NCBI RefSeq assembly: GCF_000026545.1
Contig: NC_011601.1
Source: Escherichia coli O127:H6 str. E2348/69
Lineage (GTDB): Bacteria > Pseudomonadota > Gammaproteobacteria > Enterobacterales > Enterobacteriaceae
DNA length: 64,000 nt
Direction: 5' to 3' (one strand)
A program made the position numbers and the translations under genes. The notes beneath the pieces were generated by a model. That model did no database searches and had not been told where the DNA came from. It was given only the letters and a program-made list of their open reading frames with translations. Below, piece by piece: positions 41,567 through 43,606 of this stretch (position 1 is its first letter; each line of letters starts with the position of its first letter).

Positions 41567-42622
41567 ATGAGTTTTGCAGCTACTGATTATCCATCCGGCG
41601 CACTAGCTGGATCGGGTACACACAATGTGACTTTGAGCGGCAGCGCAGTTCCTGATGGAATGTTACTGTTTGCAAACTTAGGGGGGACAGAAACAGTAGG
41701 GGAACTATTTACTTATTCTATTAAATTAAAAACTCCTGACATCCTGAACCTGGACTATGTTTCCCCCGCAGCCAACCTGCAGCTCAAACCGATGGTGGGC
41801 AAAGATCTGTGCGTCAATATCGAACTGGATGGCGGCGGAAAACGGTATATCAGCGGGCTGGTGACGGCGGCACGCGTGGCCGGTCATCAAGGACGCTCGG
41901 TGGTGTATGAACTGCGACTCGAACCGTGGTTAAAAACACTGACCCACACTAGTGACTACAAAGCGTTTCAGAATAAAAACGTGGTGGACATCCTGGATGA
42001 GGTACTGGATGAGTACCCCTGGCCAGTGGAAAAACGATTGGTAGAAAACTATCCGACTCGCGCCTGGCAGGTGCAGTACGGTGAAACAGATTTCGATTTT
42101 ATTCAGCGCCTGATGCAGGAGTGGGGTATCTACTGGTGGTTTGAGCACAACGAGAACAGTCATACGTTAGTGCTGGCTGATGCCATTAATGTCCACAAGG
42201 CATGCGCAGATTCGCCGCTGGTGTGTTATTACCAGAAAGGGCTGAAACTGGACAAGGAGTTTATCCATACCATCACAGCAAATGAAAGCCTGCGCAGCGG
42301 ACAGTGGGTGCTGAATGATTTCGACTTTATGAAGCCGCGTTCACTGCTGAAGAGCACTGTGGCTAATCCGCGTGAAACCGGCCTTGCTGAATATGAGTAC
42401 TACGAATGGCCGGGAGACTACTTCACAAAGAGTGAAGGTGAAATGCTGACACGCATCCGAATGGAAGAACAGCGTAGCCCCGGTAGTCGGGTACAGGGCA
42501 GCGGCCAGGCAGCTTTACGACCCCGGCGGGCGACTGAAGCGCAGGGAGACATACAGCGGGATGCGCGGGGTGGTTCCGGACACGTTCACGGACCGGCAGT
42601 ACAGCTACAGCGGCGAGGATGA
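41567..42622 (+). pseudogene. vgrG N-terminal fragment (gp27-like domain) running out of frame into rhs sequence
   Basis: VgrG-like [31 protein letters not shown] ends in non-VgrG sequence. Confidence 0.7.
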
Positions 42623-43606
42623 ACTGCTGAAGACGCGGCACAGCCGGCGGGGGGAAACGGACTACTTCTATGACACCACGGGGCGCATCACGGCGTGTCG
42701 CTCGGAGGATGAGGGGTATCTGGCGAGCTGGGAGTACGACGCGGCGGGCAACCTGCTGGACAGGCGCGCGGGGGGAAGGGCCACGGCAGAAAACAGCGTG
42801 GTGCTGTTCAACCGGCTGATGTCTTACCGTGGTGTGCACTACCGTTATGACGAATTTGGCCGTGCGGTGGAAAAGGAGGGGCGGAGCGGAACACAGAGTT
42901 ACCGTTATGATGCGGAACACCGGATGGTGGAAGTGACGACAGCGCGGGAGACATACCGGTATGTGTACGATGCGCTGGGGAGGCGGACGGAAAACAGCAC
43001 ATCAGCCCTGACGGTAAACCGTACAACCGGACAAAATTTTTATGGGACGGAATGCGGCTGGCGCAGGAGAACAGGCCGGAGGGAATAAGCAGCCTGTATA
43101 TCTACAGCGACCCGGGAAGTTATGAACCGCTGGCGCGGTTGGATAAGGCGGGGAAAGAGGGACCGAACCGGATACTGTATTTTCACACGGATGTGAACGG
43201 TGCTCCGGAAGAGATGACGGACAGCAACGGGAAAATTGTGTGGGAGACGGGGTATCAGGTCTGGGGTAACACGATACAGGAGAAGGACCACGGCGGGGTG
43301 GAGCAGAACCTGCGATACCAGGGGCAGTACCTCGACAGGGAAACGGGGCTGCACTACAATCTGCACAGGTACTATGATCCGGATGTCGGGCGGTTCATGG
43401 TAACGGACCCGATAGGGCTGCGGGGCGGGTTAAACTTATATGCTTATGCGCCGAATCCGTTAACGTATATTGATCCTCTTGGTCTTTGTAAATTAAGGGG
43501 AAGTAATGGGCGCTTTAGAAGTGCACAGAATATTCAGGAAGAAATAGGCGGCCTGCCCAATTTTTCAGGAAAAACCCCCAGGGCAAATACGGCAAACTTT
43601 GCGTAA
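42450..43606 (+). pseudogene. rhsE: Rhs C-terminal core fragment (rhsE-like) with internal frameshift
   Basis: YD-repeat sequence in frame 0 from 42450, switches to frame 2 near an A-tract about 42991-42994; PxxxxDPxGL motif (YYDPDVGRFMVTDPIGL ... DPLGL). Confidence 0.75.

Follow-up and report, generated by a model that had tools for sequence, protein, structure and literature searches.

How did the beginning of a vgrG gene come to be joined, out of frame, to the end of an rhs gene in Escherichia coli O127:H6 str. E2348/69, and can the resulting locus still yield a working effector? The locus lies in a 64,000-nucleotide stretch of contig NC_011601.1 (hereafter the window, whose coordinates are used throughout), where it sits between ansP and pptA-yddH-nhoA. 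The original prediction, made from the sequence without database searches, had described positions 41567-43606 as a decayed, non-functional chimera of a VgrG spike and an Rhs protein. Our analysis supports that description. We conclude that the locus is very probably what remains of an auxiliary type VI secretion system (T6SS) effector island, produced by a 4.9-kb deletion within one operon together with homopolymer slippage, and decayed in the absence of a T6SS apparatus. It is an ordinary pseudogene of a well-known kind, and one already recognized: RefSeq annotation from the Prokaryotic Genome Annotation Pipeline (PGAP) flags both halves, as ‘phage late control D family protein, incomplete’ and ‘RHS repeat-associated core domain-containing protein, frameshifted, incomplete’.

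The intact form of the island can be seen at the same ansP-pptA site in other E. coli, strain RM9387 among them. The RM9387 island encodes, in order, a 176-amino-acid (aa) protein, a small lipoprotein, VgrG (665 aa), a DcrB-related (DUF1795/Eag-type) chaperone, a 1558-aa Rhs protein, a small gene in the immunity position, symE and then pptA. In every intact locus, the gene for the 176-aa metallopeptidase-like protein holds this same place ahead of vgrG. In the window, GC content moves from about 50% in vgrG to 58-66% over the rhs core and drops to 26-37% where the toxin tail and immunity gene lie, and these steps are the classical composite profile of Rhs elements. Alignment to intact vgrG and rhs genes, a check that had been proposed for this chimera, placed the breakpoints at 42505 and 42508, mapped the indels, and resolved the remnant into the following features.

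41567-42505, plus strand: vgrG remnant, codons 1-313 of about 663, with the OB-fold and gp5 beta-helix gone.
42506-42507, plus strand: deletion joint, two bases (CA) matching neither parent in three-way alignments against the vgrG and rhs sides of strains A37 and RM9387.
42506-42622, plus strand: out-of-frame tail of the vgrG frame in rhs DNA, 38 codons with a stop at 42620-42622, from the list of open reading frames (ORFs) and the stop-codon map.
42508-42994, plus strand: rhs remnant segment A (YD repeats), from about residue 1108 of an intact 1576-aa Rhs onward, by tblastn and blastn to the JNE151685, A37 and E500002 Rhs.
42991-42994, plus strand: A-tract frameshift, A5 to A4 (-1), the only gap against three intact alleles and common to all chimera-bearing strains examined.
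42995-43578, plus strand: rhs remnant segment B, with the end of the RHS core, DPIGL at 43406-43420, PLTYIDPLGL at 43457-43486 and the start of the toxin domain.
43575-43579, plus strand: C-tract frameshift (+1), CCCCC against CTCC in the intact allele by alignment to JNE151685, which makes a stop at 43604-43606.
43579-43916, plus strand: rest of the C-terminal toxin domain, with an ORF at 43599-43916 and the original stop codon at 43914-43916.

The VgrG-like character of roughly the first 300 codons, with a gp27-type domain, was borne out. In the 351-aa ORF at 41567-42622, the gp27-like hub is recognized by Pfam Phage_GPD at E 3.6e-86 over profile positions 1-269 of 305, and the VgrG part comprises codons 1-313. 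These 313 residues are 99% identical to the intact 663-aa VgrG of strain A37, and DNA homology to intact vgrG genes ends exactly at 42505, which is codon 313. Set against the domain map of the intact protein, the Phage_GPD domain is mostly kept and is clipped at its C-terminal end. The remnant stops at residue 313, and the OB-fold (Phage_base_V, 405-472) and trimeric beta-helix (Gp5_trimer_C, 489-594) of the A37 protein are absent.

Beyond the joint, the sequence is Rhs in a different frame, with Pfam matches to RHS_repeat (3e-14) and RHS (2.2e-15). The prediction of YD repeats in another frame thus stood, and its starting point of about 42450 did not: homology begins at 42508, the repeat sequence that had been quoted lies at 42516, and the joint is about 55 nucleotides (nt) further to the right. 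Codons of vgrG start at positions that leave a remainder of 2 when divided by 3, and those of rhs at positions that leave 0, so the frames differ across the joint. The remaining Rhs, residues from about 1108 to 1576 (roughly 469 codons), is spread over three frames, and no single ORF holds a complete YD-repeat shell. A stop-codon map likewise confirmed that no frame is open across the whole locus.

The structure of the joint was observed directly and is identical in five strains. Its two breakpoints correspond to positions 5217 and 10116 of the RM9387 locus, giving a deletion of 4,898 bp. By Pfam maps of the intact proteins, the deleted interval covers VgrG residues 314-663, the whole DcrB chaperone gene, and Rhs residues 1 to about 1107, among them the PAAR motif (291-321), DUF6531 (395-473) and most of the YD repeats. 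What is left amounts to 47% of VgrG and 30% of Rhs, and the chaperone gene is gone. Both the PAAR domain and the chaperone-bound N-terminal region that characterize a T6SS PAAR-Rhs effector fall within the deleted interval and are missing from the remnant. With these losses, every domain needed for T6SS loading and firing has disappeared.

Because vgrG and rhs stand in one operon at this site in intact relatives, the joint is best read as an internal deletion of 4,898 bp and not as a fusion of unlinked genes. The original prediction had taken it for a recombination joint between two T6SS-associated gene families. A joint there is; its nature, judged by comparison of the loci, is that of an intra-operon deletion between adjacent genes that also removed the chaperone gene between them, and not that of recombination between separate loci. 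Ectopic recombination of a vgrG and an rhs from different places would fit the name of Rhs elements, which were called so for promoting rearrangements, and the position of the nearest toxin-tail match, which is elsewhere, at the RhsC site of JNE151685. It is nevertheless very unlikely, given that vgrG and rhs are arranged and oriented alike in intact relatives at this very site, that the 4.9 kb is bounded exactly by both breakpoints with collinear flanks, that on the rhs core side identity to the same-locus A37 allele is 96.7%, and that the joint is without homology.

We considered how an intra-operon deletion might have formed. The hexamer GCGGCA is found in both parental sequences near the breakpoints. 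Clean microhomology at the joint was rejected all the same, as a simple event of that kind would not account for the extra bases at the junction; the joint looks like the product of illegitimate recombination. In the mechanism that we propose, a single illegitimate-recombination deletion of about 4.9 kb, with 2 filler bases and no clean microhomology, would have occurred in an ancestor of the E2348/69 clade. It would have removed the 3' half of vgrG, the chaperone gene and the first ~1107 rhs codons, thereby linking vgrG codon 313 out of frame to the last ~469 rhs codons. Single-base slippage at short homopolymers would add further lesions: A5 shortened to A4, one base gained in a C-run, and, in the immunity gene upstream, T8 shortened to T7.

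The vgrG gene is cut at this site in other lineages as well. In strain 2022H047 it is cut at nt 746 and fused to yddH, in the E500002 group at nt 928 (E500002 locus 6168-7097), and in 2014C-3338 at about nt 1029 (locus 2668-3696). Across E. coli lineages there are at least four independent truncations of vgrG at this locus (nt 746, 928, 939 and about 1029), with only 11 nt between two of them. The vgrG query comprised the first 941 nt of the gene only, which biases the ascertainment of truncation points, and chance together with this bias could account for the near-coincidence. A hotspot reading of the clustered endpoints (nt 746-1029) was not adopted, owing to the same limit on the query. The E500002-type locus, in which the truncated vgrG is joined to a 1076-aa Rhs, was also weighed as an ancestral intermediate and rejected, its vgrG breakpoint lying 11 nt upstream of that in the window. 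Since the E500002 joint lies upstream and more of rhs is kept, the two deletions are independent and neither arrangement derives from the other.

The frame switch that had been proposed at AAAA, 42991-42994, proved to be a deletion of 1 nt relative to A5 in three intact alleles. The PxxxxDPxGL motif is encoded after this switch, in the next frame (PLTYIDPLGL), also as predicted. The conserved end of the Rhs core, with DPxGL and PxxxxDPxGL, and the variable toxin domain that follows it are thus present, and the toxin part is itself frameshifted. Intact homologs read GKTPGEIRQTLRNRGY straight through the point at 43575-43579. The original prediction missed this third break in frame and ended the locus at 43606, which is the stop that the frameshift makes; the remnant reaches 43916.

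Each of the two small indels falls within a short homopolymer, A4 or C5, which is a classic context for error. Had the breaks in frame come from sequencing or assembly, the true sequence would be one continuous gene, and resequencing to that effect had been named as what could overturn the prediction of decay. Window positions 41400-44700 are 100% identical to three independent assemblies of E. coli O127:H6 E2348/69. The three assemblies agree on the joint and the indels, as do at least four further strains with differences at single-nucleotide polymorphisms (SNPs), and the breaks recur unchanged in 11 other genomes that come from different groups and platforms and show SNP differences among themselves. 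Moreover, repair of both indels would neither bring the joint into frame nor supply the missing 4.9 kb of essential sequence. Error as the source of the broken frames is almost certainly not the explanation.

The indels, each of them the only gap in alignment with intact alleles, and their inheritance across strains are matters of direct observation. The chimera is present in 14 of 5,426 complete genomes, and the joint can serve as a marker of the E2348/69-related lineage. Joint and indels are identical in strains from a pig (China), a monkey (Mexico), a human (USA) and a dog (Korea), which differ at 10 SNPs; the variation in the clade comprises 6 synonymous and 4 nonsynonymous SNPs and 1 indel. 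In the sister strain 2015C-4136CT1, the rhs remnant has an extra -1 in a G-run at about 42770, which indicates that decay is continuing. Repair of the two single-base indels in silico gives a stop-free frame of 468 codons (42510-43916), and since so long a frame is restored by two repairs, the decay is recent.

The toxin domain at the end of this frame belongs to a rare, Escherichia-restricted family. A weak PT7 DNase-like fold is possible for it, as suggested by a structure model built from a shallow alignment of eight sequences (predicted local distance difference test score, pLDDT, 76); there was no sequence-level relationship to PT7, and Foldseek returned no match. At the RhsC site of JNE151685 (locus 2522-5067), two tandem ISEc1 (ISAs1-like, H-repeat) transposase genes precede the intact Rhs with this toxin tail, where vgrG would be expected.

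Might the chimera instead function as an ‘evolved VgrG’ that delivers the Rhs toxin, its frames connected by programmed frameshifting or by transcriptional slippage at homopolymers? VgrG proteins with C-terminal effector domains exist, VgrG2b being an example, and a homolog of its effector domain is encoded next door. Slippery A-runs can support transcriptional slippage. Such a product would, however, require three separate frame corrections, one of them at the joint, where there is no slippery run, and the vgrG frame meets a stop 38 codons past the joint. The OB-fold, the trimeric beta-helix and the toxin-encapsulating Rhs shell would all be lacking. The strain reportedly lacks a T6SS (PMC2941450), with nothing inserted at aspV, and one sister strain has gained yet another frameshift. 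We regard a functional chimera as extremely improbable, and infer that no functional spike or toxin is made.

This brings us back to the wreck of an auxiliary T6SS effector island, and to why it decayed. E2348/69 is reported to be without a type VI secretion system (Miquel et al., 2010, PMC2941450). At its aspV site, the usual insertion point of T6SS-1, tRNA-Asp runs directly into yafV-ivy-fadE with no island. Because the strain is reported to lack the T6SS apparatus, we infer that the decay reflects relaxed selection; a spike-and-effector island with no apparatus to serve would not be selected for, and the build-up of lesions agrees with this. A literature search on E2348/69 with T6SS and Rhs gave no match. 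Several points weigh against this account. The exact parental allele, an intact rhs with this toxin tail at the ansP-pptA locus, was not found, and the reference used for the toxin tail is an allele at the RhsC site in a different strain (JNE151685), with 95% identity. The 6 synonymous and 4 nonsynonymous SNPs of the clade are too sparse to demonstrate relaxed selection. The absence of a T6SS at metV is taken from PMC2941450, direct inspection having covered only aspV. Finally, the 351-aa ORF of the truncated vgrG retains its start codon and a plausible ribosome-binding site, and a truncated protein could be made.

Further genes and lesions surround the chimera.

40463-40993, plus strand: intact 176-aa HExxH protein that stands alone and is homologous to the metallopeptidase effector domain at the C-terminus of Pseudomonas aeruginosa VgrG2b.
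40990-41345, plus strand: putative lipoprotein immunity gene, frameshifted by T8 to T7 (-1) at 40999-41005 in the alignment to A37.
43928-44206, plus strand: predicted cognate immunity gene (92 aa), essentially intact, with a homolog that follows the intact Rhs gene in JNE151685.
44236-44436, minus strand: symE-family gene, 5'-truncated, 66 aa against 97 aa for JNE151685 SymE, matching positions 23-52 of 54 of Pfam SymE_toxin.
44436-44630, plus strand: separate rhs core relic of 195 bp, corresponding to residues 981-1042 of intact Rhs at 71% aa identity (tblastn and blastn).

The 40463-40993 protein is presumably a cargo effector of the island. It matches PDB 6h56_A over residues 4-138 with E 2.9e-18, and the HExxH motif is conserved. 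In some records it is labelled just ‘hypothetical’ or, misleadingly, ‘type IV secretion protein Rhs’. In the neighbouring gene, the loss of one T severs the ATG at 40990 from the lipobox-containing gene body at 41007-41345. This gene matches NCBIfam NF045617, ‘putative T6SS immunity periplasmic lipoprotein’, at 5.2e-7, a score under the family cutoff, and PGAP labels it ‘lipoprotein, frameshifted’ in sister strains. The E500002 group, whose vgrG deletion is another one, likewise has it annotated as frameshifted.

On the other side of the chimera, the symE truncation point is exactly where the 44436-44630 rhs relic starts. PGAP labels the relic ‘incomplete, missing N- and C-terminus’. The junction between symE and the relic is a second, older rearrangement scar. 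Another decayed accessory system is visible near aspV (E2348/69 record NZ_LT827011.1, 225000-270000, locus 30523-32992), where a lateral-flagellar flhA pseudogene, truncated and with an internal stop, adjoins lafU.

The immunity gene at 43928-44206 raises the question of whether the locus is kept for its sake, with spike and toxin dead and the gene guarding against kin that fire the intact Rhs toxin. Orphan immunity genes have been described in E. coli (PMC6730261). The ORF is open, its product (WP_001026259.1) is annotated in all five of the chimera loci examined, and intact attackers with the cognate toxin exist (JNE151685). A promoter-like site lies within the 3' end of rhs, at 43332-43360; it is a consensus match only. 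At a clade divergence of about 0.4%, however, an ORF of 279 nt would be expected to stay conserved by chance. Relative to the 87-aa JNE151685 homolog, a -1 in an A-run swaps the last 2 residues (KY) and adds 5, so the C-terminus of the immunity protein has been changed by a frameshift, and the island's other immunity gene, the lipoprotein, is itself frameshifted. The rarity of the toxin family would moreover make selective pressure weak. Retention of the locus for orphan immunity is thus a possibility to be kept in mind, albeit one we think improbable.

A fuller version holds that, after loss of the T6SS, selection kept 43928-44206, transcribed from the retained vgrG promoter or an internal one, as an orphan defence against a rare and maybe PT7-like DNase toxin. 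This is speculative and rather unlikely. If true, it could explain several independent deletions that keep the 5' end of vgrG and the toxin-immunity tail.

For the decayed effector island as we read it, the meaning is mostly limited to correct annotation, the earlier end coordinate having been set by a frameshift and not by the end of a gene. The locus also offers an example of how an auxiliary T6SS effector island may decay once the firing apparatus is gone, by a large deletion between neighbours and by homopolymer slippage. For work on T6SS, three by-products may have some modest value: the upstream VgrG2b-type metallopeptidase effector pair, which is free-standing, a rare Rhs toxin domain whose fold may be PT7 DNase-like, and an open candidate orphan immunity gene.

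How does the remnant compare with known systems? The rhsE locus of K-12, with which a comparison had been suggested, occupies the same chromosomal site: K-12 has yncG-yncH-rhsE'-ydcD there. The rhsE pseudogene (b1456) and ydcD resemble the remnant in that a 5'-truncated Rhs is followed by a small downstream gene between ansP and pptA. The likeness goes no further than the site and this layout. RhsE is of a different, unrelated Rhs subfamily (29-41% aa identity by tblastn), its neighbours are yncG, yncH and H-repeat/ISAs1 genes, tblastn gave no VgrG match at the K-12 rhsE locus, and blastn of window positions 40000-44860 against the K-12 locus found no similarity except pptA. K-12 was rejected as a reference for mapping the joint, as it holds no DNA match to the rhs remnant and no vgrG remnant.

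Two comparisons concern how effector domains are carried. In P. aeruginosa VgrG2b (PDB 6H56), the effector domain is fused to VgrG, whereas the E2348/69 homolog is a free-standing protein of 176 aa followed by a frameshifted lipoprotein-type immunity gene. The PT7(Bc) DNase (PDB 8OWU) is fused to LXG and belongs to a type VII secretion system, in contrast to the Rhs-borne toxin domain of the remnant.

Orphan rhs-CT/immunity modules likewise lack a full-length rhs upstream and consist of a 3' rhs fragment with its toxin tail plus an immunity gene that is open, and the second rhs core relic downstream (44436-44630) also fits that pattern. Classical modules of this type have an open toxin frame, and recombining with a full-length rhs can re-activate them, whereas the toxin frame of the remnant is broken twice. 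There is no second copy of this rhs subfamily in E2348/69, the query having matched one place per E2348/69 record.

Against the intact auxiliary T6SS modules of E. coli, a type known from enterobacterial Rhs effectors, the remnant is without the chaperone gene, and it carries an out-of-frame joint and two further frameshifts. These modules, that of RM9387 for example, have the same site, the same gene order and the same families, with vgrG 96-99% and the rhs core 93-97% identical, and they share with the remnant a GC-rich core followed by an AT-rich toxin and immunity tail.

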